Origin: a virus
Taxonomy: Duplodnaviria > Caudoviricetes
IMG/VR virus record: IMGVR_UViG_3300025608_000722
Location: 15,933 to 79,932 of that record
Strand: one strand, 5' to 3'
DNA: 64,000 nucleotides
Shown in pieces: positions 5,243 to 24,296 of the stretch. The first letter of the stretch is position 1. Each line of letters starts with the position of its first letter. The position numbers and the translations under genes are program-made. A model generated the notes under the pieces. That model ran no database searches, was not told where the DNA came from, and saw only the letters and a program-made list of their open reading frames with translations.

Positions 5243-5871
5243 AAGTAGCTCAAGTTGTCTGAAATAATGTTTACAGTTTCTTCATTAAGATCTACATTTA
5301 CAACTATCATGTATGAAGGTTTAAAACTAGTATTGAATAGATAATGTGTTTTAAGAGTGTCTACAAAGTATACGCATCCATTATCCCAATTCTCAATTTT
5401 ACCATCAATTATAAAACTAAAATTTGGCGGGTTGACATTTCGTAATGGAATTAGTAATCTAAAACTATCTATTTTTGTAGTCTTGTTATCTCTATGAGGA
5501 GGAAAATATCCGCCTGGGTCGAGTTTTAAAATATGAGTTCTAAAAATATGTTTCTTTAATGGTTCTAGACATGTTTGTAATTCAGGAGATTTATTATACA
5601 CATCTGTGTATGTTTTAAAATCTCTTTCACTATAGTCTGTATTATTCTCTTTATTGTATTCAATTAAACTATCTAGATCAGGAATACCAGACACACCGCC
5701 ATCAAGACTTGTAATACTTAATCCATACCTATTAACAGACTTTCTTGGGTTGTATGGTACATACTCAAAGTCTTGTTCAGTAAGGTTAAGGAACTTATTA
5801 ACATCATTTAGAACAAGATTTAATTTAAACACTGTTCCGTATGCTGTTAAATGGTTGTAGAGGTTAATCAC
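5239..5871 (-). CDS. 2OG-Fe(II) oxygenase, aspartyl/asparaginyl beta-hydroxylase-like
   Basis: ILKLDPGGYFPPHRD (HxD), RLLIPL, YFVDTLKTHYLFN (distal His). GTG start. Confidence 0.75.
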   Translation of the reverse strand: MINLYNHLTAYGTVFKLNLVLNDVNKFLNLTEQDFEYVPYNPRKSVNRYGLSITSLDGGVSGIPDLDSLIEYNKENNTDYSERDFKTYTDVYNKSPELQTCLEPLKKHIFRTHILKLDPGGYFPPHRDNKTTKIDSFRLLIPLRNVNPPNFSFIIDGKIENWDNGCVYFVDTLKTHYLFNTSFKPSYMIVVNVDLNEETVNIISDNLSYL

Positions 5872-5945: not shown

Positions 5946-6743
5946 ATGGCATATGTATACAGAAGCAAAGGTTCATATCCTCCTAAGAATCAAAAAATAA
6001 TAGAACATACTTACGCGGCTAAGAGCGGATTAGATGCTATAGTACCTATCAATCCAGAATGGGAGAATATAGGAGTTCAAATAAGCGGAGGTATGGACAG
6101 TGCTTTGCTACTCTATCTAGTAGCAAAGACAGTAAAAGACAACAATTATAATATTAAAGTAAGACCTATACACTTTGATATCCCTACTAAGTTACCTGTA
6201 CAGCCTCTTGCTATTATAAGCAAAGTAGAAGAATTACTAGATTTTAAATTTGGAGATATTATAGAATACGCTATTCCATTAGAGCAGTGTACAAAAGAAG
6301 CAACCATGTCGGGTGTTGGTAAGAAAGAATTTATTATACTTAAAATTAGAGAAATGTTAATGTCTAAAATTGTTAATTTTGAAGTTAACGGAAATACAAA
6401 AAATCCACCTGTTGAATTTAGAAAACATTTTCCAAATGATGAATTTAGACAAAAGAATAGAGATAGAACATTTGACATTTATACAGGACCGTATAATGCA
6501 TCTCCTCTTTCTCATTTAGATAAAGCAGATGTTGTAAGCCTGTATAAAAAATATAACCTAATTGACGAGTTAATGACATTAACATGTTCGTGTGATAACT
6601 GGAGAGATCAGATCATTGCAAAAAAATTAGATATTCCTTGTGGTCAATGTTGGTGGTGTCACGAACGAGCATACGGACTTAGTCAAAATAACATTCAAGA
6701 TCCTACACCTGTAAAGAAATTTGAAGATGAAAATTCCAAGTAA
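5946..6743 (+). CDS. QueC-like PP-loop ATP pyrophosphatase
   Basis: ISGGMDSALL PP-loop and C-terminal TCSC...CGQCWWCHER Zn-site pattern as in QueC. Confidence 0.7.
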   Translation: MAYVYRSKGSYPPKNQKIIEHTYAAKSGLDAIVPINPEWENIGVQISGGMDSALLLYLVAKTVKDNNYNIKVRPIHFDIPTKLPVQPLAIISKVEELLDFKFGDIIEYAIPLEQCTKEATMSGVGKKEFIILKIREMLMSKIVNFEVNGNTKNPPVEFRKHFPNDEFRQKNRDRTFDIYTGPYNASPLSHLDKADVVSLYKKYNLIDELMTLTCSCDNWRDQIIAKKLDIPCGQCWWCHERAYGLSQNNIQDPTPVKKFEDENSK

Positions 6744-7908
6744 AACATTTTGCAGTATGGCGTGGGACCATCAGTTTATCGATCCCACTGGACGTGTGAA
6801 ACCGTGCTGTAGGTTTGCTGAAAAGTTTAGACCCAATGAAAACAATCTCAAAGAAAAAACACTGAGTGAAGTGTTCTACGGAGATTGGATGAATGATATT
6901 CGTGACAAGATGATGAAGGGCGAACAAGTAGAAGGATGCATACGTTGCTATCAAGAAGAAGATGCAGGTAAGCGTAGTTTACGAGAACGTTATCATGATA
7001 ACAAAACATTGCCTATAGACAAGTTAGTCGATCTAGATAATCCTAAGATCGGATGGATCGAACTTGCCATTAGTAATGATTGCAACTTAGCGTGTCGTAT
7101 GTGTGACAGTCGTTATGCGTGGAAGTGGTTCAAAGAAGAACAAGCAATTTATGGCAAGACTTGGAACGAAGTCGAAAAAAGCAAAAGTGACATTGCTAAC
7201 ATATATCCTTTTATAAATGATCTAGTTCATATCAAGTTCACCGGCGGTGAGCCGTTATTAACAAAGGATCAATGGATAGTAGTTGACAAACTAATTGCGG
7301 AGAGAGACTGTAGCGAAATATTTTTAAATTATAGCACTAACTGTACTATTATGCCTAAAGATAGTTGGGTCAAAAAATGGGACAAATTTAAAACAGTCGA
7401 GTTTGCTCTTAGCTTTGATAGTTGTAACAAAGAAGAAAGCGAATATATACGTTGGCCTGCAAAATACGAACTTACTGAAGAAGTAACTAAACGCTTTTTA
7501 GAATTAAAACGTACAAACGGATATAATGTTCTATTACGTAGTACTATTAGTATTTTAAATGTATGGTATATGGCAGAAAGTATGGAGTGGTGGTTTAAAC
7601 ACGATAGCGGCAATGTTATTGTGAATCCAACACATTTAACATATCCAGAAATATTATGTGTTACAGTATTACCTAAACACATCAAGGAACGTGTAACTGC
7701 TAAATTTAACGAGTATCAGAAGAATTCAGATAACATAAAGATAATTAACTCGTTAGAATATATAAAAAATCTTATGAATAGCAAGGATGACAGTCATCTT
7801 CTACCACAGTTACAAACGTATTTAGAAGGCACTGATGCTTATAGAGATCAGGACTTTTACAAAAGTTATCCTCATTTTGCAGATATTTTTGCAACCATTA
7901 AAGATTAA
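6721..7908 (+). CDS. Radical SAM enzyme with N-terminal twitch/SPASM-like domain (subfamily A)
   Basis: CNLACRMC, FTGGEP; N-terminal FCSMAW...PCC...CIRC. Confidence 0.85.
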   Translation: MKMKIPSKTFCSMAWDHQFIDPTGRVKPCCRFAEKFRPNENNLKEKTLSEVFYGDWMNDIRDKMMKGEQVEGCIRCYQEEDAGKRSLRERYHDNKTLPIDKLVDLDNPKIGWIELAISNDCNLACRMCDSRYAWKWFKEEQAIYGKTWNEVEKSKSDIANIYPFINDLVHIKFTGGEPLLTKDQWIVVDKLIAERDCSEIFLNYSTNCTIMPKDSWVKKWDKFKTVEFALSFDSCNKEESEYIRWPAKYELTEEVTKRFLELKRTNGYNVLLRSTISILNVWYMAESMEWWFKHDSGNVIVNPTHLTYPEILCVTVLPKHIKERVTAKFNEYQKNSDNIKIINSLEYIKNLMNSKDDSHLLPQLQTYLEGTDAYRDQDFYKSYPHFADIFATIKD

Positions 7909-8221
7909 AAATAATATGTTCGTTGATTGTATGAGCGCCGCCTTCATTTTTTATGTCAGCAGGATTTTTACTACAAAACTTCTTACAAGCATAAAAGCAA
8001 TCTGATTTATCCCAACTATTTTCTAGTTTAATCAATGCTTTACTTTTTCTTAGATCCTGTATAGATTTATTTTGTGTATGCAATTCTTCTAAATCTTCTC
8101 CAAGAAATTCTTTTAGATCATCAACATAAGGTTGATTAGCTATCCAACAACAAGGATAATAATAACCGTCGCTATCGATATATTCTGCGGCTTTATTAAT
8201 TTTACAGCGTGGATAGATCAT
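7898..8221 (-). CDS. Stand-alone SPASM/twitch-like Fe-S domain, probably the separated C-terminus of the upstream radical SAM
   Basis: PRC...YIDSDGYYYPCCW...W...CKKFC matches the C-termini of the 313, 333 and 355-aa paralogs. Confidence 0.7.
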   Translation of the reverse strand: MIYPRCKINKAAEYIDSDGYYYPCCWIANQPYVDDLKEFLGEDLEELHTQNKSIQDLRKSKALIKLENSWDKSDCFYACKKFCSKNPADIKNEGGAHTINEHIIFNL

Positions 8222-8825
8222 TTTTTATATTTTCTTCAAGTTGATTAATCGTTATTGTAGGATTAAATTTATCACTGTTGCGATTGCTTTGCACTATCAT
8301 AAACTGATCAAATTTTAGTTGTTTAGCTATTGCTAGTGCTTGTGTAATAGTGTCCTGATTATATTTAAAAAGTATATGTTTCCATATCAACTTAGTTGAA
8401 CTATTATTTGTTCTAAATGCTTCTATACCTTTTACAATTAAATCCCATTTAGAATTTACTCGGTACATATGATTATTACTTTCAATGCCATCAATACTAA
8501 AATTAATTTCGTCGTTAGCATCAAACACTTTTGCTAGTCTGCTCCACCAATCTGAAGTTCTATAACTTCCATTAGTGTGTAAAATTAATTTAGCAGTATT
8601 GTTCTTTTCTTTAATCTTACGTATTAATCCAATAAAATCTTTATGATATATTGGATCACCATGATTTCCGCAGATAATAATTTCGTCAAATGTAGATGTC
8701 AAATTACTATAGTGTTCAATGTCACAATCTATATTTTGTATTTTATCTGAATATATTGTTCTTGGACACAAAGGACATTGTAGTGGACATCTCGAAGTTG
8801 GCTCGATATGAATTATTCCTGGCAC
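8202..8825 (-). CDS. Radical SAM enzyme lacking its C-terminal domain (subfamily C)
   Basis: EPTSRCPLQCPLCPR, CGNHGDP, FSIDG...YRVN..W. Confidence 0.85.
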   Translation of the reverse strand: MPGIIHIEPTSRCPLQCPLCPRTIYSDKIQNIDCDIEHYSNLTSTFDEIIICGNHGDPIYHKDFIGLIRKIKEKNNTAKLILHTNGSYRTSDWWSRLAKVFDANDEINFSIDGIESNNHMYRVNSKWDLIVKGIEAFRTNNSSTKLIWKHILFKYNQDTITQALAIAKQLKFDQFMIVQSNRNSDKFNPTITINQLEENIKNDLSTL

Positions 8826-9934
8826 ACTACTTTCCTTTTTGGTATTTTTGAATCTGCACTTGAGACACAGGAGTTTGTAATGCAGGGCATAGGGGTATCA
8901 AAGAGTTTAAATCCTGTTTCGATGTTTCCAAGCGGCACATCGTGACAGGAATAGGATCGCTTAACGGAACCGTCGGGCTCTCTAATAATGATTCCTTGGT
9001 ATCCGGCATTGCAATTCCAACCTTTAAACTTATTAAAATTAAAAGCGTTAAAACGCTCAGCTTGATCCATATACCATTTTTTGCCATCTTTATCCTCAAA
9101 TTCTACTTGCATATGCCAAGGTACACTAGCATCTGGCTTGCTCATTCCTGCAGGTACTTCAAACTTTGCTTTAGGACGTTCAGCCCATTTACGTTTACTT
9201 TCTGTGTATGCACGTTGCGGCATTCCGTTGTGCAAACGTTTTAGATCTTCCGGTTTATAACCATCAACCACTCTCGAGGCAGTTGGATCTGATTGCGGCT
9301 TAAGAGTAACATTGATTCCTTGTTCGTGGAAGAACAATGCATTTTCCCAATCTCTTTCGAACCAGTCCGGAACCATAACCATATTGATTGTAACTTGTAC
9401 ATCGTGTTCTTGACACAAGATCAGTTTGTTAGCGAAATCTTGCATCTTTTCTCGTGTATTAAGATGCTCTGTGTGTAAACTTGCTGTAATGCTTGCTCTA
9501 TGAAATGGCTTAACTGCTTCTACATACTGTTCAAACCACTTCATGTTGCGGCTACAGTTTGATGTCATGTGAACGCTAGTATAATTAGTATTATCAACAT
9601 CATCGGCAAGATGTTTGAGAATGTCCAAATAGCCAGGGTGAAAAGTAGGCTCACCACCAGATAAACTAAAATGAAAGCTATTAAAACCGTTATCACGAGC
9701 CTGTCGCTTTATCTCGTCAATTGTTCGTAGACATAGTACAGTTGGTCTATGATCTTTTCTGTCACTGCGAGCGTACGGCCAGCAGTAAGAGCATTTATAA
9801 TTACAAAAACGACCGAGCAACCAACTAACAGTAAAAAGATCCCTGTAGAGTAGAGTTCTTTGCCCCACAGAGACAATATCCTCAAAGGGGATTTTAGTAA
9901 AATCATAATTGCTCCATTTTAAATCTTCAGTCAT
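8813..9934 (-). CDS. Radical SAM enzyme (subfamily B)
   Basis: WLLGRFCNYKCSYC, LSGGEP; C-terminal WNCNAG...SC...PC...C. Confidence 0.85.
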   Translation of the reverse strand: MTEDLKWSNYDFTKIPFEDIVSVGQRTLLYRDLFTVSWLLGRFCNYKCSYCWPYARSDRKDHRPTVLCLRTIDEIKRQARDNGFNSFHFSLSGGEPTFHPGYLDILKHLADDVDNTNYTSVHMTSNCSRNMKWFEQYVEAVKPFHRASITASLHTEHLNTREKMQDFANKLILCQEHDVQVTINMVMVPDWFERDWENALFFHEQGINVTLKPQSDPTASRVVDGYKPEDLKRLHNGMPQRAYTESKRKWAERPKAKFEVPAGMSKPDASVPWHMQVEFEDKDGKKWYMDQAERFNAFNFNKFKGWNCNAGYQGIIIREPDGSVKRSYSCHDVPLGNIETGFKLFDTPMPCITNSCVSSADSKIPKRKVVCQE

Positions 9935-9940
9935 AATACT

Positions 9941-9969
9941 ATACTAACACACTTATTGATCTTTGTCAA
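9941..9969 (-). promoter_or_regulatory. Sigma70-type promoter
   Basis: Minus strand reads TTGACA (9969-9964), 17 nt, TAGTAT (9946-9941), with an extended -10 TG, just upstream of the 9934 start. Confidence 0.75.
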
Positions 9970-11137
9970 CCTTCCATTCAATCATATCTTTAATTAAATG
10001 GTAATGTTCCCAATCTTTAATCTTAGGAACTTTTAAATCTAAATTATCTGTGCATCTCCACTTAGGGCATCTAATAGGTTCCAATGGAAGATCAATTGAG
10101 TCTTTATCATAAATGTTTCCTCTCTTCCCTCCAACGTGACAACTGCCAATATAAATGTCTCCCGGAGGAGTTACTTTTAAATGTTTTACACCTGCCCAAC
10201 ATAGCCAGCCTTCATAATTATTTTTCTTGTCAAAATTAAGTTCGTTGTAATGAAAATCAATATCTTTGTATTGCTTTTCTTCATCCTGGAACCAAAACTT
10301 TAATTTACGTTTATCTGGAGTAACAGTGCTTTCGTAAATTCTCTTAATTTTATCTTCTTCGCCTTCTTTATAAAATTTCTTTTCTCTAGTTTCAATTACC
10401 TTAATTTCTACTTCGTCATCTGTAGACAATAGTATTTTAGGTTCCATTGTATCATTATTTTTTTCAAAGTCTAGTTTTGTTCTAGGTAATAGTTCATTAC
10501 TATTGCCGCCTGGTGGACGTATATATCTATGTTCAATATTAGTAATACCATGATTCCTAAATGCAGTTTCCATTTTTTCAATATTATTAAACTGCTCAGG
10601 ATAAACCATAAATCTTAATATTAAATTTTTTCGAGTATAACCGTTTTTAAAGTCTTTATGATCAAGTCCTTTTTCTTCTTGTTCTTTATTCCATGCCACA
10701 CGCCAATCATCTAGTTCAATAAACTTTTCAATAAATTCATCAACCTTATCTGCCATGTGTTCAAAATGAAAACTAACTGTAATACTGTCCAGATACTGGA
10801 ATAGCTCTTTTAAATAGTTTGCAGTCCTACTTCCATTAGTAGTAATACTAATGAATCTTGCACCTTTTTCTTCTTTAATATACTTACACAAATCCATAAA
10901 CTTTGGATTCACAGTAGGCTCGCCACCTGTCAAACTCCAAAATACATTAGTGCCATGTTCTTCATAAACTACATCAACAAGACGCTTCATGTTTTCTAAC
11001 GGAACGTGTGGACTATGATTGTCGTGCAAATAATCTACACAATAACTGCAATCATAATTACATCTTTTTCCAATATACCAATCAACACTAAATGCGCCAG
11101 TTGGATTAAACTTAAAATAACTTGCTACTGGTTCCAT
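9953..11137 (-). CDS. Radical SAM enzyme (subfamily B)
   Basis: WYIGKRCNYDCSYC, LTGGEP; C-terminal WLCWAG...SC...C...C. Confidence 0.85.
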   Translation of the reverse strand: MEPVASYFKFNPTGAFSVDWYIGKRCNYDCSYCVDYLHDNHSPHVPLENMKRLVDVVYEEHGTNVFWSLTGGEPTVNPKFMDLCKYIKEEKGARFISITTNGSRTANYLKELFQYLDSITVSFHFEHMADKVDEFIEKFIELDDWRVAWNKEQEEKGLDHKDFKNGYTRKNLILRFMVYPEQFNNIEKMETAFRNHGITNIEHRYIRPPGGNSNELLPRTKLDFEKNNDTMEPKILLSTDDEVEIKVIETREKKFYKEGEEDKIKRIYESTVTPDKRKLKFWFQDEEKQYKDIDFHYNELNFDKKNNYEGWLCWAGVKHLKVTPPGDIYIGSCHVGGKRGNIYDKDSIDLPLEPIRCPKWRCTDNLDLKVPKIKDWEHYHLIKDMIEWKVDKDQ

Positions 11138-12078
11138 TATAGTTTATCCTTTATAAACTTATCTCTTTTGTTTTCTTTACATACTTGTTCGCATCTTGGA
11201 ATTTTATTGTCTGATGTCCAACTATTTTTAATATCAGTCCAAACTTTTCCGTTAATTGCCTGTTCTAAGCTAACATTTTTTAAGTTAATATCTGTTAGAT
11301 AGTCTTGTTGTTCTAGTATGTCTTCAAATCTATCCTTTGGAATAGAAGATACAGAATATTCTAACATCTTTGCATTTAAATGACAGCATGGAATTACATT
11401 TCCCATATGATTTACAAAAATACGTTTTTGATTACCGTACTTGCAACTGATACAATTAGACTCTTCTACTTCAACTTTTTTATGTTTTACTCCACCAGTA
11501 TCTTTTCTATGACTAATGATCGTTTTAAATTCTTTAAAGCCTTCATCTGTTGCCATTTGTTTTGCAACTTCTAGTTGGTGTTCATTGTGTTCGAATACAA
11601 TAAACTGCCAATTGGCTTTGCCGCCTGCTCCAATAAATGCTCTATAATTTTGCTGTACTTTTTTAAAATTAGAGCCTTCTCTATAAACTTCACTTAGTTC
11701 GTCGCTACCATCAATGCCCCATGTTACCTTATGGCTCGGCGGCATAATCTTTGCTAGTTTTTCCCACCATTGTGTAGTACGCAAACTGCCGTTAGTTGCA
11801 ACATTAATATGACATCCCCATTCTGCAAAGTGTTCTACTATTTCATGAAATTGAGGATGACTGCAAGGTTCATCTACACTGCCACAAAAATTAATAATCT
11901 TAATATTAGGAAACATTTCCTTTTGAAATCTTTGCTTAATAACTTCAAGATCTAAATAAGTTTTATTTAAAATTTGATCTGCATGTTTAGATATCACTCT
12001 AAAACAACCTTTGCACTTAATATTACAAAAGCTAGTAAGTTCAATATCAATCCATTCTAGTGTATCAGTTGTCCACAT
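11137..12078 (-). CDS. Radical SAM/SPASM-like enzyme (subfamily C)
   Basis: ELTSFCNIKCKGC, CGSVDEP; C-terminal GNVIPCC...CEQVC. Confidence 0.85.
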   Translation of the reverse strand: MWTTDTLEWIDIELTSFCNIKCKGCFRVISKHADQILNKTYLDLEVIKQRFQKEMFPNIKIINFCGSVDEPCSHPQFHEIVEHFAEWGCHINVATNGSLRTTQWWEKLAKIMPPSHKVTWGIDGSDELSEVYREGSNFKKVQQNYRAFIGAGGKANWQFIVFEHNEHQLEVAKQMATDEGFKEFKTIISHRKDTGGVKHKKVEVEESNCISCKYGNQKRIFVNHMGNVIPCCHLNAKMLEYSVSSIPKDRFEDILEQQDYLTDINLKNVSLEQAINGKVWTDIKNSWTSDNKIPRCEQVCKENKRDKFIKDKL

Positions 12079-12096
12079 TATTCAAAGCACCACGGT

Positions 12097-13275
12097 TCAG
12101 ACATCTAAAATTTCCACATTAAAATGATTCTTTAGTGTGTCTACATAACTGTCTTTAAATTTACTTTTAGGCGCACATAATCCACAACTACATGTTTGTT
12201 TAGGACAAACAATTGTTGGCATTTTATTCATTGATAACTTTTCTTTAAGATCTGCAATAATCTTTTTACCTTCACTTATTTTACCTATTGGACCTCTTGT
12301 ACCATCAAATCGTGCTTGACATGTTTGATGATGGAATACCTGATCTGTTTGTTGTTCTAAATGTAGGAAAAACCAATTTACACTACAATGCCAACCTTTA
12401 AACTCTCGCATGTTAACAAAGGTACTCTTGCGACTTTCGCCGCCTGCACTACTTAGACACATCTCTCGCATACCACAACAAGGTCTTCCGATACTACTTC
12501 CTAAAACTTTTGTTGCTTCATTTTTCTTTTCGCCTGCGGCACTTAGTACCTTTGATACTTCTTCTTCATCATTTAGTTTAGCATTTTTATATTTCCAATA
12601 ATTTTTAATGTAATCTAATTGATCTGGTGTGTACTCATGAGCAAAAGTTGCTTTACTGTCAGGTTCTTCTCCAATGACTCTCGGAACATATTTACAGCCA
12701 AGTGTATCTAACCACTTGCACAAATCTTTACATTCGTCGAACTGTTGAGCATGAAACATAACATTAACATTCATTCGAAAGTCTTTAGGATATTTTATTT
12801 CTGCATCACGAAATTGTTTAATTCTATCTTTAACTTGCTGTCGTAATTTATCATCTGATTCAGTATGATAGCTAACTGTTACATGTTGTATATTATCGAT
12901 AACTGCCTCAGCCATTTTTTCACTCATAGCTCCGTTAGTAGTTAACCCTATATTAGCATCCCATTTATGAGAATACTTTTTATAATATTCATCATTTAAA
13001 TATTTTACAAAAGGAATAAAATTAGGATTTACTGTAGGCTCGCCACCTGTAAAGCTAATACTTGCTAATTTATTATTTCTATACTGCATATAAGTATCAA
13101 TATATTCAAACAAAAAATCAGTATTAGATTTAAGATCATCTAATGATGCATGAGGACTAAAATTGTCATGCCTATGAGCAGGGCAATAACTACAATCATA
13201 ATTGCAACGACGACCTAAATCCCAAGTAATTTGGAAAATATTTCCTGATAATAAATCTATAGTGTCAAAACTCAT
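12097..13275 (-). CDS. Radical SAM enzyme (subfamily B)
   Basis: WDLGRRCNYDCSYC, FTGGEP; C-terminal WHC...TC...CPKQTCSCGLC. Confidence 0.85.
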   Translation of the reverse strand: MSFDTIDLLSGNIFQITWDLGRRCNYDCSYCPAHRHDNFSPHASLDDLKSNTDFLFEYIDTYMQYRNNKLASISFTGGEPTVNPNFIPFVKYLNDEYYKKYSHKWDANIGLTTNGAMSEKMAEAVIDNIQHVTVSYHTESDDKLRQQVKDRIKQFRDAEIKYPKDFRMNVNVMFHAQQFDECKDLCKWLDTLGCKYVPRVIGEEPDSKATFAHEYTPDQLDYIKNYWKYKNAKLNDEEEVSKVLSAAGEKKNEATKVLGSSIGRPCCGMREMCLSSAGGESRKSTFVNMREFKGWHCSVNWFFLHLEQQTDQVFHHQTCQARFDGTRGPIGKISEGKKIIADLKEKLSMNKMPTIVCPKQTCSCGLCAPKSKFKDSYVDTLKNHFNVEILDV

Positions 13276-14677: not shown

Positions 14678-15675
14678 TTTAATGCCTCAAATCGTTGTGT
14701 TGCAACTTTGTTTTCTTTACAGTTTTCTATACACTTAGGAAAAATACCGTCTTTAATTCCTGTATATAAATTAGTATACCATTCACTGTCGAAAATATCC
14801 TGTATACTATTTTGTCCATTAAGTCTATGATGTTCTGTTCCGTGATCTTTACTATAATGTTGCCATAAACCTCTAAATCCACTTTTAGTTCCCCACCAAC
14901 AACACGGAACAACATATCCATGATGTGTAACATAAAGTCCTTGATCTTCTATTTTAGAACTAATACATCTTGGAATAACTGTAGGAACTTCTTGCTTTTT
15001 CTCGACTTTGGGATCGCTCTTGTGTTGAGAATTTTTACCTAGGTCTGCTCGCGGACTTCCAATAAACTTTACTCTGCTAAATCCTTCTTTGGCAGCAATA
15101 TCTTCTATAAGATGTGCCTGATGTTCGTTATGAGAAAAATATATAAATTGCCATACAGCATCTCCGCCTGCGGCAATATAATTTCTAAAATTTCTTTGTA
15201 CTTTCTGCCAATCAACATTTACTCTATAAATGTGATTAGTATCTTCTAATCCATCTAATCCCCAATTTACTCTAACACGGCCATTTGATTCTTTTGAAAT
15301 TTCTCCTAATGTTGTCCAGAACTCATCATTACGTGTTCCGCCGTTAGTAGCAATAGAAATCTTAGGTTTGCTAGTAAACAATTCATCATTAGATAAAATC
15401 CATTTAACAATTTCAATTAAATCAGGATTAGTAGTTGCTTCGTCATAGTTACCACACATATGAATTAGGCGCAGATCAGTCCACTTATCTTTAGATACCC
15501 AACTTTTAAATTGTTCTAAACTTACATACATACTATTCACATCAAAGTGGTAATCCATATCAATAAGTTTATCATTAATAAATGCACGAGCACATGCAGG
15601 GCAGGCTGCGTTGCAATAATTTGACATTTCAATTTGCAGTTTAGTTTGTCGTTCTACTGGTACTTGCCAACTCAT
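14674..15675 (-). CDS. Radical SAM/SPASM-like enzyme (subfamily C)
   Basis: EMSNYCNAACPACAR, CGNYDE; C-terminal PRC...VPCCW...CIENC. Confidence 0.85.
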   Translation of the reverse strand: MSWQVPVERQTKLQIEMSNYCNAACPACARAFINDKLIDMDYHFDVNSMYVSLEQFKSWVSKDKWTDLRLIHMCGNYDEATTNPDLIEIVKWILSNDELFTSKPKISIATNGGTRNDEFWTTLGEISKESNGRVRVNWGLDGLEDTNHIYRVNVDWQKVQRNFRNYIAAGGDAVWQFIYFSHNEHQAHLIEDIAAKEGFSRVKFIGSPRADLGKNSQHKSDPKVEKKQEVPTVIPRCISSKIEDQGLYVTHHGYVVPCCWWGTKSGFRGLWQHYSKDHGTEHHRLNGQNSIQDIFDSEWYTNLYTGIKDGIFPKCIENCKENKVATQRFEALK

Positions 15676-16739
15676 TCTTGCTCCACCATAACATTTTGAT
15701 AGGCTTTATTAAAACCGCAACTAGCAACACATCGTTTCATGTGTTTATTATGTGACGGATTCCAGCTTTCTTCTAAAACCTTAGTATACCAAGGATGTTT
15801 CATAACTTCCTCAATACTGTGTGTTTTTAAACTATTCCATTCTGTAGGGTATTCAGATAATTTTTCTAAAAAGTTTTCTTTGTTCTTAAACGCACTGTCC
15901 CACAAAAAACAACAAGGCCACATCTCTTGTTTTGCATTAATAAAAATTTCGCCTTCATGAACATACTTACAAACAATAGATTTTACAACTTCTTCATCTA
16001 CTTGATTAGTTTGAATTTTATTCATCAACTCTAATACTTCGTCTTTGCGTGCATGTTCTTTGCTACCAGTAGTAGTAATAGTTTTTACTTCTTTAGTAAC
16101 TTTGCCTCGACCTTCTTTTTTTGCAATTTGAGCTGTCCACTCATTTAAACTATTACGCATTCCTGTTCTAATTACAAATTTCAATCCTAACTTTTTAGCA
16201 TGAGCCTTAGCTACTTCAATTTCGTGTTCGTTATGATCAAATACAATAAACACCCATTTAGATCTTGTGTCCTCACCTTTATAAGAATTTTCTGCAAACG
16301 CTTCAATGTTGCGCTGTACTACATCAAACTTTGTGTTTACACGATAAATGTGGTTAGTTTCTCTATGTCCGTCAATACAGAACATCATGATCAAGTCTCT
16401 TCCGTACTCCTTACTTAATTCACCTAATCTGTACCAACTCGATCTAGGTGCAACACCGCCATTAGTACTAATAGTAACATAAGCACCACCTTCTAATAAG
16501 TATTCCACTATTTCAACAAACTGTGGATGAATTGCAGGATCACCTAATACTCCGCACAGTCTAATATCTTTATCTTTAAGATGTGCTTCATCTGGTAATA
16601 TTCTTTTTAAGTCATCAAGTGAAAAACTTGTTACTTCTAAGATGTCTCGGTTAAGTGTTCTTGCACAACCTGGACATGCGGCATTACAATCACTTGTAAT
16701 TTCCAGTTCGATTTTGTGTACGTCAATTATGTTTATCAT
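15672..16739 (-). CDS. Radical SAM/SPASM-like enzyme (subfamily C)
   Basis: EITSDCNAACPGCAR, CGVLGDP; C-terminal WPCC...CVASC. Confidence 0.85.
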   Translation of the reverse strand: MINIIDVHKIELEITSDCNAACPGCARTLNRDILEVTSFSLDDLKRILPDEAHLKDKDIRLCGVLGDPAIHPQFVEIVEYLLEGGAYVTISTNGGVAPRSSWYRLGELSKEYGRDLIMMFCIDGHRETNHIYRVNTKFDVVQRNIEAFAENSYKGEDTRSKWVFIVFDHNEHEIEVAKAHAKKLGLKFVIRTGMRNSLNEWTAQIAKKEGRGKVTKEVKTITTTGSKEHARKDEVLELMNKIQTNQVDEEVVKSIVCKYVHEGEIFINAKQEMWPCCFLWDSAFKNKENFLEKLSEYPTEWNSLKTHSIEEVMKHPWYTKVLEESWNPSHNKHMKRCVASCGFNKAYQNVMVEQE

Positions 16740-16750
16740 TATATATGTAC

Positions 16751-17818
16751 TTATTTAAATTGTTCAGTGAAGGGATCAAACTCGGCGCCGCACTTTGTAG
16801 CACATACTTTTAGTTTGCCAGCGTCACAACTAGGTTTATTCCAACTATCTTGTATTTGGTCAAATACTCCTGTAGCAAAAACTTTATCAAGACCATTACG
16901 TGCGTCTAGTGCATTTTTATCAGGAATAAAATCCCATATCTGTTCTACTTTAGGATCTTTGTGCCACCATTTATACATACGCCCAGCAGTCCAGCAACAA
17001 GGCAATGCTAATCCTTCTGCGGTAATAAACAAACTATTTTCTTTCTTAACTTTACAAATAATAGGAGTAGCATTATAATATGCATCCATACTGCCGTATT
17101 TCTTCAATATTACTTCTTGTTTACTCAATGCTTTATTAAGGTATTTCTCATCGGGTTTTTTTAATTCAGCAGTATCATTTCCTTTACGGTCTTTGGACTG
17201 ATGTTTATCTTTAGGATCTACTTGTGCTGTTACAAATCTTCCAGTTTTCTTTTTCATAAATTTTTCACAGCCCCACTCTTTTGCAAGTGCCTCTGCTTCA
17301 TCAACTTGATGTTGATTATGTTCAAAGATTAAAAAGTCCCAACGTGCCCTGCCGCCGGCATCAATAAATGCTCGCATATTACGTTCTACGTTGTCCCAAT
17401 TTACCCCTTGTCTGTAAATATGATTCGTATCGCGAAGACCATCGACACTAAAAATAACAGCCCCCATTCTTCCAAAGACATAGGCCAATTCATTCCACCA
17501 TTCAACATTTTTTGCTCCTGCATTTGTATTCATGCTTAACCACATTGTCGGGTTATGTTCACGAAAGTATTTGAATATTTCTAATGTGTCACGAGCAACA
17601 ATAGGATCACCTAAGTTACCACACATATACATAGTATTAAGCTGTGCAATAAACTCTGGGAGGAATATTTTTTTACAATCTTCCAGTGTAAGTTCATCTA
17701 GATTAATATGAGGATTAATTCCTTCGCCATTCATATTACGGTCGCACATAGGACAACTGGCTTGACAGTTTTGTGTAACCTCTAAATGAATTGATCGTAT
17801 ATCGCTATAATTATACAT
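16751..17818 (-). CDS. Radical SAM/SPASM-like enzyme (subfamily C)
   Basis: EVTQNCQASCPMCDR, CGNLGDP; C-terminal LPCCW...CATKC. Confidence 0.85.
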   Translation of the reverse strand: MYNYSDIRSIHLEVTQNCQASCPMCDRNMNGEGINPHINLDELTLEDCKKIFLPEFIAQLNTMYMCGNLGDPIVARDTLEIFKYFREHNPTMWLSMNTNAGAKNVEWWNELAYVFGRMGAVIFSVDGLRDTNHIYRQGVNWDNVERNMRAFIDAGGRARWDFLIFEHNQHQVDEAEALAKEWGCEKFMKKKTGRFVTAQVDPKDKHQSKDRKGNDTAELKKPDEKYLNKALSKQEVILKKYGSMDAYYNATPIICKVKKENSLFITAEGLALPCCWTAGRMYKWWHKDPKVEQIWDFIPDKNALDARNGLDKVFATGVFDQIQDSWNKPSCDAGKLKVCATKCGAEFDPFTEQFK

Positions 17819-18062
17819 CCATTACCAACTTTATATCTTTACCTGGTCCAACTTTACTAGGTAAGTCTCCGTATTGATCTACATACCATTTAATAACTGC
17901 ACGATACCAATTTTGACTATCGTGATGTGCTTGTTTATTAAATTGCCAAATATTATTATTAGTAGCCTGCATTGTACTTAATGCCCTAGCACTTTCAGTT
18001 TGAAGTTGTCTAAGTGATAAATTACTTGTATCCAATTCGCATGTACCTTGTATATTTGTCAA
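17811..18062 (-). CDS. Small hypothetical protein (true start possibly an internal TTG near the upstream stop)
   Basis: Fills the gap between the methyltransferase and a radical SAM gene, overlapping both; protein-like composition. Confidence 0.55.
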   Translation of the reverse strand: MTNIQGTCELDTSNLSLRQLQTESARALSTMQATNNNIWQFNKQAHHDSQNWYRAVIKWYVDQYGDLPSKVGPGKDIKLVMDV

Positions 18063-18858
18063 GATTTAATTCTCCTTCATATAACAATGTTGTCATTGGG
18101 GCCATTCCGGCAAAGTCGTGCATACTAGTAGTGCAGTTAACATGTTCTTCAACTTCATAGAAATCATTACTTTGTAATATAACTAATTTTCCTGCCGGAA
18201 TTAAATCATACCATTCACTAAAATTTTTAATGTGTTCGCAACTTGTATTAATGATGGTGTTAGGAATATCACCTAAGTCGACTGTTGTTCCGTTAGCACG
18301 TAATACTGTGTATACTGCATTTTCGTAATTAATTTCTTTAATGTCTTTAGTGCAGGATTTGAACTTCCATCCGTCAAGCACCCAATCTTTATTAAATGCT
18401 TCTGCTACTTCTCTGCAAGTGTCGTCGATATCAAAACTTCTAAATTTTTCAATTTTTAAATTATTTTCAAACATCATAGTAGCTAATGTTGCATACCAAC
18501 CGGCACATAAAAATACAACACCTAAATCAAGATTTAAATTCTTTAGCTCTGCAACTAACCATTGTTTACTTTTTATCTGGCCTCGGCTAATACAATCCGT
18601 GTCAAAGTTTTCGTTTTTTTGCAACTTACGAATACCTTCAATAAAAGGCGTGTCTTTAATTTGTTTAACTGCACGAAATAAACTCCACACGTTATCTTGT
18701 AACAATGCCTTACGTAAATCATCTTTATTATCGTCTGTAACAATTCTAAAAATACTATTAAGATCTTTGTCAACATATGCTCTACGTAGATCTGCTAGTT
18801 TGCTACTAGTAGGATATAATAATTCTAGTCTATCTAAAATTTCATGAGTTTGCATCAA
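18022..18858 (-). CDS. Class I SAM-dependent methyltransferase-like protein
   Basis: VVFLCAGWYATL (motif I-like), RSFDID (motif II), IINTSCEH. Confidence 0.6.
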   Translation of the reverse strand: MMQTHEILDRLELLYPTSSKLADLRRAYVDKDLNSIFRIVTDDNKDDLRKALLQDNVWSLFRAVKQIKDTPFIEGIRKLQKNENFDTDCISRGQIKSKQWLVAELKNLNLDLGVVFLCAGWYATLATMMFENNLKIEKFRSFDIDDTCREVAEAFNKDWVLDGWKFKSCTKDIKEINYENAVYTVLRANGTTVDLGDIPNTIINTSCEHIKNFSEWYDLIPAGKLVILQSNDFYEVEEHVNCTTSMHDFAGMAPMTTLLYEGELNLDKYTRYMRIGYK

Positions 18859-19543
18859 ATTGCTCCTTTAACCATTCGAAGTTGTTAATATTTACTAGCT
18901 CATCAGGCCTGCAAGAAAGGCCAAAATCCATACCAGCATTAGCACCCGCCAGGGCATACTTACCAAAAGGTTTATCAACTCCCTTAGTAGTCCATATTTT
19001 AAGTCGTTCATCTGTTTCATCATTAATTTGTCTATCTATAATTTTACTTGATAATTTAGCACATTCTCTAAATGCACTTCTCCATGTACTAAATGCATCA
19101 GTATTAAATGCAGTAATATTAGATATCTCGTTAATTACTTTAAATTTAGTACTAATACTAGTTGTCATGTCAGTTGTCGTTGTATCCATATTTTTTGTTA
19201 ACTCTGTTGGAAACAACTTTACACCGCCGTAACCATAAATTAAATTGTTAATAGGATTCATGCTTCTATAAACATGTACTGTATCAGGTTCAGTTGTATA
19301 ATAATTAAAATCAAATTCATCAACTATTACTGCGTCACCGTCTACAGCAAAAAAATAATTAGTGGTTGCTAATTTAGCCGCTTCAATATGAGCATTGTGA
19401 ATACCCTTTACATTAGTAACACGCTTTACTCTGTCGTCTCCAAAGATCCCAACTGTATTAAATCTTTTATACAACTCGTTAAAATTTTGTTCTGCATTTG
19501 GTTCATGATAACTTATAAACACTATGTCGTACATTTTTTGCAC
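18842..19543 (-). CDS. GT-A (GT2-like) glycosyltransferase
   Basis: YDIVFISYHE, HNAHIEAA, FAVDGD (DxD), WRSAFRE. Paralog of 20870-21811. Confidence 0.7.
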   Translation of the reverse strand: MQKMYDIVFISYHEPNAEQNFNELYKRFNTVGIFGDDRVKRVTNVKGIHNAHIEAAKLATTNYFFAVDGDAVIVDEFDFNYYTTEPDTVHVYRSMNPINNLIYGYGGVKLFPTELTKNMDTTTTDMTTSISTKFKVINEISNITAFNTDAFSTWRSAFRECAKLSSKIIDRQINDETDERLKIWTTKGVDKPFGKYALAGANAGMDFGLSCRPDELVNINNFEWLKEQFDANS

Positions 19544-20868
19544 TCCTTGTAAAAATCTTTTAATTCAGGAAATACAGTTAAAAAATCAGTACCTCGACGT
19601 TTATCAAACTGGGTGATAAATTCATAAAACATAAATCTACGTTCTTTAGCAAGACTACCAAATTCTTCTGGGTTTTTAAAACGTTTGTTTAGATCTTGTA
19701 CAATTCTTTTTAAATCATTTGTTTCGTGCTCATCAAAATGTTCTTCCATAAACTCTACACAAGGAATTAAATATTTTTCAATCATGTCTTCAGTTGCGAT
19801 CATTGCATCGAGAAACCCAGGATTTCTTACATACGGGATTGCAATTCTTACTCTATCTTTAAACCCATTACGCAATCTTAACACAATTCCAAGAAACGGT
19901 CTGAATGTAGGAAAACTTAGGATATTAAATGCCGACATAAAACTTAGTTTTCCATTAGTATTTTTTAGATAATACAATACATTGTCGTAGAATTGTTGCC
20001 AGTTTAGTCCTGTTCTACTGTACTCTGCTTGTGCTCCTTTGCTTTCTGCACTTACATGCAAAGTAAATCCTTTGATACAATTGTTACGCTCAAGGTGTTG
20101 TATCTTTTTAATAAATTTATTCCATAACTTTCCTGGCGGACATGCATTTGTATTAATAGAAAATTCCAACTGAGGCTGAGGATTGTCAATTAAATGTTGC
20201 AGAACTTTGTCAGTATGTTTACTTAAGAGGGGTTCGCCTCCTGTAATACGAAAAGTGTGCATATGTTTAACTGCTTCCGGAAACCATTTCCAAAAAGCAT
20301 TAATATACGGATTTTCTTCTCTTTCAGGAATTTGCTTTTGATATTCATCTAGTTGATTATAAAACCAATTAATTGTACTAAATTTATAGTGGCCGTGTTC
20401 TTTAATTTCTTCAGTCCATTTACTACTAAATGCCGGTCCACAATAACTACATTTAAAGTTACATACGTTAGAAAAACTTACTTCAACATATCTAGGATAA
20501 AAATCATCGTAAGCATTAGAATTTACAATTTTATGATAGTCCGGCCAACTCCAATAATTTCTACTTTTCCATATTCTATCACTGTAATGATCTGTGTTAT
20601 CTTCAATACGCCAGCAATAGTCACACTCGCCGGGTCGCTCACCGTTTTTCATTTGCTGGCGGGTGTTCTTTTTAAACATTGTATTGTGTAGCAATTGCGG
20701 ATTTTCTTCAACTTCGTTGATTGGAATCGTGTGTGCTTTTACGTGATGACAACTATGATTTAATCCTGATCCTAAATGTATAGTAACCTGTGTCCATTTA
20801 GCCAAGCAGAATCCACATCCTACTTGGTTTAATTTTTCTTTAACTTTTTTAGGATCTGTTAATTCCAT
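19522..20868 (-). CDS. Radical SAM enzyme with N-terminal twitch/SPASM-like domain (subfamily A)
   Basis: FCLAKW...SCHH...CDYCW, then CNFKCSYC and ITGGEP. Confidence 0.85.
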   Translation of the reverse strand: MELTDPKKVKEKLNQVGCGFCLAKWTQVTIHLGSGLNHSCHHVKAHTIPINEVEENPQLLHNTMFKKNTRQQMKNGERPGECDYCWRIEDNTDHYSDRIWKSRNYWSWPDYHKIVNSNAYDDFYPRYVEVSFSNVCNFKCSYCGPAFSSKWTEEIKEHGHYKFSTINWFYNQLDEYQKQIPEREENPYINAFWKWFPEAVKHMHTFRITGGEPLLSKHTDKVLQHLIDNPQPQLEFSINTNACPPGKLWNKFIKKIQHLERNNCIKGFTLHVSAESKGAQAEYSRTGLNWQQFYDNVLYYLKNTNGKLSFMSAFNILSFPTFRPFLGIVLRLRNGFKDRVRIAIPYVRNPGFLDAMIATEDMIEKYLIPCVEFMEEHFDEHETNDLKRIVQDLNKRFKNPEEFGSLAKERRFMFYEFITQFDKRRGTDFLTVFPELKDFYKECKKCTT

Positions 20869-20869
20869 T

Positions 20870-24261: not shown

Positions 24262-24296
24262 AGTTATACTCCTAGTTAAGTATAAACTATTTAATC

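Follow-up and report, generated by a model that had tools for sequence, protein, structure and literature searches.

Eleven radical SAM enzymes and sugar transferases encoded behind the tail-fibre genes of an uncultured marine jumbo phage

Gene content and layout of the array

Behind the tail-fibre genes in the genome of an uncultured marine jumbo phage lie genes for eleven intact radical SAM enzymes and for sugar transferases. The window, the whole stretch of 64,000 nucleotides that was analysed, belongs to a 79.9-kb IMG/VR contig whose genes for tail fibres, for the wedge and hub of the baseplate and for a gp55-like late sigma factor confirm the phage origin claimed in the original prediction, and every radical SAM match found in a genome scan of the contig falls within the array stretch. 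The genes are listed below with dN/dS values where these are given gene by gene; in the text they are called by their lower coordinate, whereas the original prediction named minus-strand genes by the upper one.

5239..5871, minus: Asp/Arg-hydroxylase-like 2OG oxygenase accompanying the cassette (Pfam PF05118)
5946..6743, plus: QueC-like PP-loop ATP pyrophosphatase (Pfam QueC and PP-loop matches)
6721..7908, plus: radical SAM, group A, convergent with the operon (NF033640)
7898..8221, minus: twitch/SPASM-like domain on its own, completing the split enzyme whose core is 8202 (SPASM E 0.0096); dN/dS 0.044
8202..8825, minus: radical SAM, group C, supplying the core of the split enzyme (Pfam 34.6 bits); dN/dS 0.059
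8813..9934, minus: radical SAM, group B, anchor at the far array end (Pfam 56 bits)
9953..11137, minus: radical SAM, group B (Pfam 60 bits); dN/dS 0.043
11137..12078, minus: radical SAM, group C (Pfam Radical_SAM and SPASM 29.5 bits); dN/dS 0.08
12097..13275, minus: radical SAM, group B, with a C-terminal C..C..CxxxxC domain (Pfam 52 bits); dN/dS 0.04-0.15
13265..14677, minus: radical SAM, group A, most conserved anchor (NF033640)
14674..15675, minus: radical SAM, group C (Pfam Radical_SAM and a weak SPASM match); dN/dS 0.010
15672..16739, minus: radical SAM, group C (Pfam 36 bits); dN/dS 0.056
16751..17818, minus: radical SAM, group C, C-terminal twitch, conserved anchor (Pfam)
17811..18062, minus: small phage-specific protein of about 74-83 aa, usually preceding 16751; dN/dS 0.10
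18022..18858, minus: class I SAM-dependent methyltransferase, helical in its N-terminal region (AF2 pLDDT 93)
18842..19543, minus: GT-A-fold glycosyltransferase, family A1, short form (AF2 pLDDT 88 and Foldseek)
19522..20868, minus: radical SAM, group A, N-terminal twitch, the one that the minimal cassette retains (NF033640); dN/dS 0.025
20870..21811, minus: GT-A-fold glycosyltransferase, family A1, long form, 30% identical to 18842-19543
21787..22308, minus: 173-aa protein (sub-threshold PRORP match only); dN/dS 0.05
22298..23098, minus: GT8 (glycogenin-like) glycosyltransferase, paralog 2; dN/dS 0.06
23091..23921, minus: GT8 (glycogenin-like) glycosyltransferase, paralog 1 (profile A3 against glycogenin chains, E 7e-5); dN/dS 0.07
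23914..24261, minus: first gene of the putative glycan operon, 115 aa (positional ortholog in phage RsoM2USA)
24297..25211, minus: last gene of the fibre module, 304 aa, upstream operon boundary (family alignment A8)

The minus-strand unit from 24261 to 7898 begins directly behind the tail-fibre genes, and the junctions between genes from 7898 to 25211 measured -41 to +35 nt, in line with the predicted stop/start overlaps of most ORFs. Besides radical SAM proteins, its enzymes are two GT8-like and two GT-A-fold transferases and one class I methyltransferase. The convergent plus-strand pair (5946-7908) consists of the PP-loop ATPase gene and, overlapping it at its own start, the last of the eleven radical SAM genes. 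At the upstream boundary, the 24297 protein carries a repeated ITAxx(Y/W)NNLR motif in its N-terminus and gave no match in PDB and Pfam searches; its homologs precede the GT8 pair in relatives and are often duplicated. A late-promoter-like box, (A/T)TAAATA, lies at 24294, 33 nt upstream of the start of 23914, and, as judged solely from this short motif and the tight spacing, the operon may be co-transcribed late with the fibre genes. Elsewhere, an adjacent cassette in the window encodes a class IV aminotransferase, AMP-binding enzymes and a TctA transporter, and about 13 kb upstream the contig carries genes for GTP cyclohydrolase I, a phosphoribosyltransferase and a 2OG oxygenase.

The DxD motif was invariant in 23091 (D86/D88), in 18842 (D68/D70) and in 20870, the clusters of which are called 'glycosyltransferase 2-like' in the Atlas. 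The top Foldseek PDB matches of the 18842 model were all GT-A glycosyltransferases, and those of the methyltransferase were small-molecule and sugar methyltransferases (E about 1e-7). The PP-loop enzyme has an SGGMDS motif and a C-terminal Cys cluster. The 17811 gene was present in 66 of 80 viral loci (median identity 76%), its product being conserved over its full length with one Cys; the cellular loci gave no match to it except L134, which looks like a phage contig.

Radical SAM groups, cysteine clusters and selection

All eleven ORFs named in the original prediction were found, each encoding a radical SAM protein with an auxiliary Cys domain and exactly one CX3CX2C motif. The gathering score of Pfam Radical_SAM (PF04055) was exceeded by ten of them; the exception, 19522, reached 25.8 bits, 27.7 in the genome scan and 29.6 with neighbouring in-frame matches. 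The division into paralog groups of three, three and five also held, and the groups are deeply diverged, with 23-35% identity within each. The auxiliary cluster is N-terminal in group A (C-x17-CC ... C-x2-C; variant C-x2-C-x18-C ... C-x2-C in 19522) and C-terminal in group C (C-x18-20-CC ... C-x3-C) and group B (C-x19-21-C ... C-x4-C), the catalytic motif of groups B and C beginning at residues 13-44. The Cys count fits one auxiliary cluster per enzyme. Invariant Cys were C13/31/32/94/97 and C150/154/157 in 13265, C308/330/351/356 in 8813, and twitch residues 255/274/275/339/343 in 16751, and the SPASM/twitch match of 11137 exceeded the cut-off. As foreseen, the auxiliary domain of 8202 is encoded in a separate ORF, 7898, which matched the C-termini of 14674 and 16751 (blastp 7.5e-6 and 2.4e-5, respectively); this core/twitch split recurs in relatives just 37-39% identical.

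Orthologs of 13265 were found in 80 viral loci at 74-99% identity and in Bdellovibrionota at 58-61%. The corresponding figures were 76 of 80 viral loci and 44-51% for 16751 and about 40 viral loci and 59-68% for 8813, while 15672 occurred in 37 viral loci at at least 40% identity. Furthermore, 12097 has orthologs in Bdellovibrionota at 45-46%, 9953 has a 53% ortholog in a Pseudobdellovibrionaceae MAG, and 6721 has 556 homologs at E<=1e-10, its cellular orthologs (up to 70% identity) being nearly all from Bdellovibrionota.

The dN/dS values were 0.01-0.15 across all members, including both halves of the split gene, indicating strong purifying selection and ruling out the relaxed selection (dN/dS near 1) that the original prediction had named as evidence against itself. 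Seven of the eleven have Bdellovibrionota orthologs (37-70% identity) nearer than any paralog in the window (25-35%), and the array is thus old and maintained, as had been proposed. A recent tandem amplification, leaving redundant or decaying paralogs with overlapping or absent function, would fit the range of 6 to 12 copies among full-length relatives; however, it is contradicted by the paralog divergence, the dN/dS of each member and the closer bacterial orthologs, and all catalytic and auxiliary Cys are retained, so that we consider it highly improbable.

Relatives in Bdellovibrionota and in a Ralstonia phage

The cultured Bdellovibrio sp. HCB2-146 has orthologs of 13265 (58%), 8813 (59%), 16751 (44%), 19522 (41%) and 18022 (34%), neighboured by genes for two UDP-Glc/GDP-Man dehydrogenases, an NAD epimerase/dehydratase, a DegT aminotransferase and a polysaccharide lyase. 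The locus also holds five GT2 genes and a sixth GT-like ORF (Glyco_transf_7C match), and at its flank is the gene of a 1965-aa fibre protein that contains a Peptidase_S74 domain. Among the genes of bacterial cassettes are a B12-binding radical SAM gene, an SDR-like gene and those of PP-loop enzymes, and PP-loop paralogs, up to three per array, are interleaved with group A genes in relatives. Asp/Arg-hydroxylase-like oxygenases (orthologs of 5239 at 32-46% within Bdellovibrionota cassettes), a fatty-acid desaturase and a fatty-acid hydroxylase accompany some cassettes, for which the target could be protein or lipid.

In the cultured Ralstonia phage RsoM2USA, the gene order is the same with a single radical SAM gene: a fibre-like gene, a 23914-like gene, GT8, GT8, an unmatched ORF at the 21787 position, GT-A, N-twitch radical SAM, GT-A and methyltransferase. 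Its orthologs of 20870, 19522 and 23914 are 45%, 39% and 27% identical, respectively, the last in the same position. Immediately upstream of the RsoM2USA cassette are genes whose products mass spectrometry detected in virions (PMC8504454). Position and orientation behind fibre genes are maintained from the marine phages to RsoM2USA, and both this culturable phage and Bdellovibrio strains share the core genes of the array. In Bdellovibrionota the gene set resides on the chromosome, so the predicted phage modification system stands as a tailoring set and not as a phage-specific one.

In three relatives (L016, L026 and L027), two GT-A domains, about ten 23-aa repeats and a methyltransferase form a single 1008-1222-aa protein in that order, and in L008 (12568-15060) an NF033640 radical SAM is fused to a PP-loop ATPase. 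These Rosetta-stone fusions point to a putative glycan-building function.

Candidate functions and comparison with known systems

The observed gene content and protein folds, the fusions, the conservation, the purifying selection and the polysaccharide setting of the orthologs in bacteria lead us to propose, at a probability of roughly 55%, that the array encodes a soluble pathway in the cytoplasm by which a glycan is built and edited; we infer sugars as substrates, each individual reaction and the acceptor. The two GT8-like and two GT-A-fold transferases would assemble a sugar chain, which the class I methyltransferase would methylate. Each of the eleven twitch-type enzymes would cleave SAM at its CX3CX2C [4Fe-4S] cluster, and the 5'-deoxyadenosyl radical would abstract one particular sugar C-H, the auxiliary cluster accepting or returning an electron as in BtrN. 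Depending on the position, the sugar could be oxidised, epimerised, dehydrated/deoxygenated or joined through a new C-C bond. The PP-loop enzyme may adenylate a carboxylate (e.g. of a uronic acid) or an amide to give an amide or amidine. The only hydrophobic segment in the operon proteins was a Rossmann strand, and the operon encodes neither a protein with a membrane segment nor a flippase, polymerase or exporter; within the phage, a virion fibre or another cytoplasmic protein would therefore be the likeliest acceptor. Counting against the glycan reading are the lack of an NDP-sugar synthesis gene in the window, the modest Foldseek TM-scores of the GT-A model (0.35-0.5) and two Bdellovibrionota MAG islands (L161 and L162) made up almost entirely of radical SAM, PP-loop and unknown genes, with few transferases.

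The original prediction left sugar and peptide substrates side by side, and the context favours sugar, given the GT8, GT-A and methyltransferase genes, the GT-GT-methyltransferase fusions and the Bdellovibrio polysaccharide locus. The radical SAM enzymes might instead act on residues of virion fibres or of an unrecognised precursor peptide, producing thioether or C-C cross-links or epimerised or beta-hydroxylated residues, with sugars as a side decoration. Peptide maturases are common among SPASM/twitch enzymes, weak NCBIfam matches to PapB, StsB, WgkB and anSME were obtained, the accompanying Asp/Arg-hydroxylase-like oxygenase would suit a protein target, and fibre genes precede the operon and, as the S74 protein, adjoin the Bdellovibrio cluster. 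However, all peptide-maturase models scored 15-60 bits against cut-offs of 300-850, and one auxiliary cluster suits the Cys count, against two in SPASM maturases. RiPP hallmarks were not seen either: neither an RRE domain nor a precursor-like gene was found, PqqD/RRE matches were absent, groups B and C leave no room for such a domain ahead of the catalytic motif, and the sole small conserved ORF, 17811, is conserved throughout with one Cys and missing from bacterial cassettes. Peptide or protein modification is thus unlikely.

Somewhat less likely again is a cassette of metabolic or weapon genes, not of surface or virion decoration, that makes a soluble pseudo-oligosaccharide or nucleoside-type natural product or remodels lipid or lipid A. 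Aminoglycoside pathways combine transferases and methyltransferases with twitch or B12 radical SAM enzymes, and the B12-binding, SDR-like, PP-loop and fatty-acid genes of bacterial cassettes, like the aminotransferase cassette adjacent in the window, could be read this way; yet the placement behind fibre genes is kept through to RsoM2USA, the GT-GT-repeat-methyltransferase proteins resemble polymer builders, and the operon showed no gene for a carrier protein, a synthase or an exporter. We regard DNA or nucleotide hypermodification as improbable. The C-terminus of the PP-loop enzyme resembles QueC, the GTP cyclohydrolase I group lies upstream, and glycosylation of DNA by phage transferases is known from work cited in PMC12619734. 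Against this, QueC scored 24 bits versus a cut-off of 150 and QueE models 19-33 bits versus 206-260, PP-loop paralogs number up to three per array, the cellular orthologs reside in a chromosomal polysaccharide locus, and no TGT/DpdA-like gene was seen in 80 kb.

Many radical SAM genes had already been reported in passing for the marine T4-like viral genome TARA_ERS488813_N000010, with 12 such genes and Fe-S cluster genes (Nishimura 2017, PMC5332604); that paper gives the gene count, without families, context or function. The proteins do not fall into one characterised family, which the original prediction had named as counting against it, and the predicted multi-enzyme tailoring set without a characterised product was upheld, as no PDB relative extended past the generic core and equivalog models fell far below cut-off. 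The three group A proteins matched NCBIfam NF033640 (N_Twi_rSAM) over the full model length at 300 (6721), 424 (13265) and 300.6 bits (19522) against a cut-off of 170, sharing its Cys-rich twitch domain ahead of the CX3CX2C core; a literature search found neither a tested member nor a paper on this family. It covers three of the eleven, and for groups B and C no curated family scored above cut-off.

Single-auxiliary-cluster twitch enzymes such as BtrN and the related sugar/cyclitol enzymes NeoN, AprD4 and BlsE act on sugars and small molecules. We propose BtrN-type enzymes as a possible mechanistic template, the likeness lying in the core, one fully Cys-ligated auxiliary motif and the sugar-handling context. 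No sequence relation to them was detectable: PDB profile searches with group A were empty, those with groups B and C matched the generic N-terminal core only (NifB, anSME and viperin), the BlsE model scored 31 bits against a cut-off of 400, and the domain order is inverted in group A. We know of no described pathway with ten or more twitch-type radical SAM enzymes.

Virion glycosylation is exemplified by the capsid and tail-tube glycans of mycobacteriophages (Freeman 2023, cited in PMC12619734). In such systems soluble transferases are encoded beside structural genes, as are the transferases of this phage, for which a virion target would be a candidate, and the structural matches to the GT-A model included the PBCV-1 capsid glycosyltransferase A64R (2p72). 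To our knowledge, the virion glycosylation systems of mycobacteriophages and chlorovirus PBCV-1 contain no radical SAM enzymes. Proteins of the WbdA/WbdD and WbbB type are multi-domain O-antigen polymerases/terminators with a coiled-coil ruler. Although the corresponding domains are separate genes in the window and no ABC exporter was seen in the phage, the single-chain proteins of relatives, with two GT-A domains, a variable run of helical 23-aa repeats and a methyltransferase, show a similar layout.

Radical SAM families, architecture, and age

The eleven ORFs between 6721 and 20868 all match Pfam Radical_SAM, each with a single CX3CX2C motif, and stand with the following neighbours (ORFs are named by their lower window coordinate):

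5946 (+), predicted PP-loop ATPase
6721-7908 (+), radical SAM, group A
7898 (−), separate twitch-motif ORF, group C
8202-8825 (−), radical SAM, group C, split from 7898
8813-9934 (−), radical SAM, group B
9953-11137 (−), radical SAM, group B
11137-12078 (−), radical SAM, group C
12097-13275 (−), radical SAM, group B
13265-14677 (−), radical SAM, group A
14674-15675 (−), radical SAM, group C
15672-16739 (−), radical SAM, group C
16751-17818 (−), radical SAM, group C
17811 (−), small protein
18022 (−), predicted methyltransferase
18842 and 20870 (−), predicted GT-A glycosyltransferases
19522-20868 (−), radical SAM, group A
22298 and 23091 (−), GT8-like
23914 (−), first operon gene

Membership in the superfamily was judged by the CX3CX2C motif for the SAM-binding [4Fe-4S] cluster together with a PF04055 score above the 29.5-bit gathering score. 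Ten of the eleven ORFs scored 31-60 bits; 19522-20868 scored 25.8 bits (27.7 in a genome scan and 29.6 with neighbouring matches) and passes NCBIfam NF033640. The original prediction had sorted these ORFs into groups of 3 + 3 + 5, with one split gene and overlapping junctions, and ORF, motif, and junction analysis confirmed all of this, including the coordinates. In group A (6721, 13265, and 19522), a Cys-rich twitch domain lies N-terminal to the catalytic core, the arrangement of NF033640 (N_Twi_rSAM), for which at least 170 bits to the whole-protein HMM are required with the twitch domain in that position. The three proteins scored 300, 424, and 300.6 bits, respectively, covering model positions 1-398 in all cases, and the other eight, at 25-52 bits, fall below the 170-bit cut-off and are non-members. 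Group B (8813, 9953, and 12097) carries a C-terminal four-Cys motif unlike that of group C (11137, 14674, 15672, 16751, and 8202 with 7898), in which the twitch motif is C-terminal and, in 8202/7898, encoded in a separate ORF.

Identity among the window paralogs within a group is 23-35%. Group-against-group profile-profile comparison aligned the core region alone (probability 74% in one comparison and 5% in the other), and twitch identity of the group B C-terminal domain and a profile-level permutation thus have no support. Proteins of the SPASM/twitch subgroup have an auxiliary Cys-rich domain binding one (twitch) or two (SPASM) extra [4Fe-4S] clusters. Pfam SPASM scored above its cut-off in 6721, 11137, and 13265 and below it in 14674 and 7898, with no match in 15672, 16751, 19522, or any member of group B. 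In groups A, B, and C, conserved sets of four to five auxiliary Cys are compatible with one putative cluster, and every catalytic and auxiliary cysteine is invariant in the ortholog alignments. PDB profile searches with the three groups, the GT-A family (A1), and two further alignment sets (A2, and A8 for 24297, the last fibre-module gene) found nothing past the generic N-terminal radical SAM core, and the matches of groups A, B, and C included no BtrN chain.

The radical SAM array is real, ancient, and under selection. Scanning IMG/VR with 13265 gave 80 loci, with orthologs 74-99% identical, and the full-length viral loci hold 6-12 radical SAM ORFs each, at most 10 kb from this anchor. Near-universal across the viral loci are 13265, 16751, the small gene 17811, 18842/18022, and, at the far end, 8813; the middle of the array is variable, with strongly diverged group A paralogs alternating with QueC-like PP-loop genes. 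As had been predicted, the array is old and maintained: dN/dS (Nei-Gojobori, against viral orthologs) lies between 0.01 and 0.15 throughout, for the eleven genes as for each half of the split gene, and seven of the eleven have cellular orthologs at 37-70% identity, each closer than the window paralogs (maximum 25-35%), which places paralog divergence before the exchange of the set between phages and bacteria. The 8202/7898 split is also present in relatives of only 37-39% identity and is thus probably a real two-subunit form, a programmed frameshift over the 20-nt overlap being the alternative. One homologous locus (L134), on a 161-kb contig with GC 0.28 and 11 radical SAM ORFs in a 'Chloroflexota' MAG, holds the sole non-viral match to 17811 and resembles a phage contig placed in a bacterial MAG by binning.

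Operon layout, partner enzymes, and related phages

From the fibre genes down to 7898, all minus-strand junctions lie between -41 and +35 nt. Besides the radical SAM genes, the operon contains, in order, the GT8-like pair, the GT-A pair, and the class I methyltransferase, and no membrane segment was found in the operon proteins. Convergent with it are the PP-loop ATPase gene 5946 and, overlapping the end of 5946 with its start, the eleventh radical SAM gene, 6721. Terminator and sigma-70-type promoter scans remained at chance level. A late-promoter-like (A/T)TAAATA box stands 33 nt upstream of 23914, and similar boxes precede one fibre gene, 31274, and the baseplate wedge gene. Of the T4 late consensus TATAAATA, the 64-kb window has two copies (12.3 expected by chance), one of them (26740-26747) 36 nt upstream of the fibre gene starting at 26711; this rarity and placement would fit a T4-type late promoter avoided elsewhere, a fit that is suggestive only.

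GT8 membership was taken to mean a GT-A fold with DxD and a relation to glycogenin/LgtC. The family profile of 22298/23091 (A3) matched glycogenin-1 and -2 chains with E = 7e-5 over ~100 residues, the DxD motif (D86/D88) is invariant, and neither protein has a Pfam or NCBIfam match. The 18842/20870 pair are predicted glycosyltransferases, with a Rossmann-like GT-A fold in the AF2 model (pLDDT 88) and a DxD motif (D68/D70) invariant in the family alignment; all 46 Foldseek matches listed at E ≤ 1e-3 were GT-A enzymes, including ppGalNAc-transferases, the chlorovirus capsid transferase A64R, and SunS. The AF2 model of 18022 (pLDDT 93) has the seven-stranded Rossmann fold of class I SAM-dependent methyltransferases, and its best Foldseek matches (SibL, PsoF, NodS, MtmC, and KijD1; E 1e-7 to 1e-6) place the predicted structure close to small-molecule and sugar methyltransferases. 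Some matches are aminopropyl or nicotianamine synthases, and the transferred group is thus uncertain. ORF 5946 has the SGGxDS motif of PP-loop ATP pyrophosphatases (SGGMDS at residues 47-52).

In three relatives (L016:1300-4968, L026:5671-8697, and L027:3913-7089), single proteins of 1008-1222 aa, differing in length, comprise a 20870-type GT-A, an 18842-type GT-A, about ten 23-aa helical repeats, and a methyltransferase, in this order. The repeat also forms the N-terminus of 18022, and its run in the fusions may serve as a spacer or ruler. In other relatives, two to four GT-A domains are joined in a row, and an 830-aa protein (L008:12568-15060) joins an NF033640 radical SAM to a PP-loop ATPase. 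The GT-GT-methyltransferase and radical SAM/PP-loop fusions suggest that the transferases and the methyltransferase, as well as the group A and PP-loop enzymes, belong to one process.

The final 64 kb of an IMG/VR virus contig of 79.9 kb (completeness 16%, CheckV) make up the window, whose products include a T4-type baseplate wedge and hub, a late sigma factor resembling gp55, a gp46-like nuclease, and tail-fibre proteins; jumbo myoviruses such as Atu_ph07, SCTP-2, and the Rak2-like phages share 34-37% identity with its wedge protein. Ralstonia phage RsoM2USA (343.8 kb) carries the proximal half of the operon in identical order: a fibre-like gene that shares the N-terminus comes first, followed by a 23914-like gene, a pair of GT8 genes, an unmatched ORF at the 21787 position, a GT-A (45%), one N-twitch radical SAM (locus tag RsoM2USA_349, in block 346-353; 39% to 19522), a GT-A (42%), and a methyltransferase (30%). 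The genes of this block are all annotated as hypothetical, and the block lies directly downstream of genes for virion proteins identified by mass spectrometry (PMC8504454). Because RsoM2USA has the core with one radical SAM, the window array appears to be a one-enzyme core enlarged by ten further radical SAM genes. Against cultured phages, the 15-kb stretch gave no megablast match, and in tblastn 13265, 16751, and 8813 matched, at only ~22%, unrelated radical SAM genes from phages of Vibrio, Pelagibacter, and Campylobacter.

The window also contains the following regions:

23-5871, second metabolic block: TctA with a TctC-sized ORF upstream, two short AMP-binding enzymes, a class IV aminotransferase, an Asp/Arg-hydroxylase-like oxygenase, and a weak methyltransferase match
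25233-30663 (−), three successive fibre-like proteins with a common ~85-aa N-terminal module (phrog_14394/15511) and different C-termini
31295-46258 (−), one 4987-aa ORF with fibre genes on one side and the baseplate wedge gene on the other
50265-51218 (−), PAAR-like N-terminus and peptidase/endolysin-like C-terminus in one protein, adjoining the baseplate hub-lysozyme gene

RsoM2USA ORF355 carries the ~85-aa module at 40% identity, and its ORF361, a virion protein of >288 kDa, lies in a region comparable to that of the 4987-aa ORF (PMC8504454). Upstream of the second metabolic block, locus L083 (G000:C1:1-16500) encodes GTP cyclohydrolase I, a phosphoribosyltransferase, and a 2OG oxygenase; it also has a MoxR AAA ATPase along with a DUF2201 VWA-like protein, and another protein whose N-terminal domain is of the major-tropism-determinant type.

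Cellular counterparts in Bdellovibrionota

Homologs of 6721 are numerous in metagenomes, and its closest relatives in one-genome-per-species collections are almost all Bdellovibrionota, at up to 70% identity. The loci led to five Bdellovibrionota genomes (G001-G005), among them those of Halobacteriovorax marinus and the cultured Bdellovibrio sp. HCB2-146; each has 6-13 clustered NF033640 genes above the cut-off, and none was found in 14 control genomes. In a Bdellovibrionota sample, 26 of 121 genomes had at least one such gene, some up to 11, and ~79% had none; the distribution is patchy and island-like. The bacterial islands mirror the phage set, with orthologs of groups A, B, and C, PP-loop paralogs, an Asp/Arg-hydroxylase-like oxygenase, GT-A, and methyltransferase, and carry an extra B12-binding radical SAM. 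At one locus (L081), the cassette has integrase genes no more than a few kb away.

The HCB2-146 locus has orthologs of 13265, 8813, 16751, 19522, and 18022. These lie beside genes for two UDP-glucose/GDP-mannose dehydrogenases, an NAD epimerase/dehydratase, and a DegT-type aminotransferase, as well as five GT2 genes and a sixth GT-like ORF. The same neighbourhood encodes a polysaccharide lyase and a fatty-acid hydroxylase, together with a membrane protein of eight helices and a 1965-aa fibre protein bearing a Peptidase_S74 chaperone domain. This gene context is the strongest evidence that the enzymes may act on sugars. The 1965-aa protein showed no similarity to the phage proteins compared, and there is thus no evidence of joint transfer of fibre and cassette. 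The Bdellovibrionota link was dropped as a host clue because Ralstonia phage RsoM2USA shares the same core.

Proposed glycan editing and its alternatives

Given the cost and oxygen sensitivity of radical SAM enzymes, eleven of them, each conserved separately, imply a strong benefit in a phage of oxic marine/saline waters. The system is widespread and common to jumbo phages and predatory bacteria, and is probably a glycan-tailoring cluster, with unusually rich radical chemistry. We propose, with a probability of roughly 0.55, that it is a soluble line building and editing a glycan. Each radical SAM enzyme would functionalise one specific sugar C-H by BtrN-type logic, that is, radical initiation with an auxiliary cluster handling the electron, and uronic acids from UDP-sugar-type dehydrogenases would, we infer, supply the carboxylate for the PP-loop enzyme to activate. 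The phage operon encodes no membrane, flippase, polymerase, or export function, which together with its fibre-module position favours a cytoplasmic protein as the putative acceptor; such a protein, for example a virion fibre, is the most attractive option. A more doubtful extension is that a heavily radical-SAM-edited glycan is attached in the cytoplasm to trimeric fibres, namely the tail fibres of jumbo phages and phage-like prey-recognition fibres of predatory Bdellovibrionota, with a variable 1-14 enzymes diversifying the fibre coat, a diversity that would either protect against hydrolases or contribute to receptor recognition. If this were true, radical SAM chemistry would add a new level of glycan diversification after assembly, and NF033640, group B, and group C would each represent a new class of sugar-editing enzyme.

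Direct modification of a protein or peptide is unlikely. A RiPP maturase was taken to require an equivalog-level match, or an RRE (PqqD-like) domain with an adjacent precursor peptide; the best peptide-maturase scores were 15-43 bits against cut-offs of 300-850, there was no PqqD match, and no precursor-like ORF was seen. ORF 17811 (83 aa) was rejected as a precursor peptide or RRE on its whole-length conservation, its single Cys, and its absence from the bacterial cassettes. A small molecule or lipid as the product, to which the fatty-acid hydroxylase of HCB2-146 might point, is still less probable beside the fibre-module position. DNA hypermodification is highly improbable. ORF 5946 has a QueC-like C-terminal Cys cluster and scores 30.4 bits to Pfam QueC (cut-off 22); the QueC equivalog was rejected at 24 bits versus a cut-off of 150, confined to its C-terminal 50 residues, as was the 7-deazaguanine pathway, with QueE models at 19-33 bits versus cut-offs of 206-260. 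That the copies, paralogous as they are within each group, are redundant or decaying is scarcely credible given the dN/dS values.

Returning to the glycan-editing line, a virion or cell-surface glycan as its product would bear on the building, protection, and diversification of phage fibres and predator surfaces. To our knowledge, groups A, B, and C have no tested member, and new chemistry is thus possible in each. The system is accessible at the bench, with the one-enzyme core in the culturable RsoM2USA and multi-copy sets in the culturable HCB2-146 and Halobacteriovorax marinus. No functional study on NF033640, Bdellovibrio radical SAM clusters, or phage radical SAM arrays was found in the literature; a 183-kb T4-like marine viral genome with 12 radical SAM genes has been discussed in terms of Fe-S metabolism, with no function proposed (Nishimura et al., 2017; PMC5332604). 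Compared with BtrN-type sugar/cyclitol dehydrogenases, which act on a 2-deoxy-scyllo-inosamine-type substrate, the window enzymes would show a resemblance in the proposed mechanism only.
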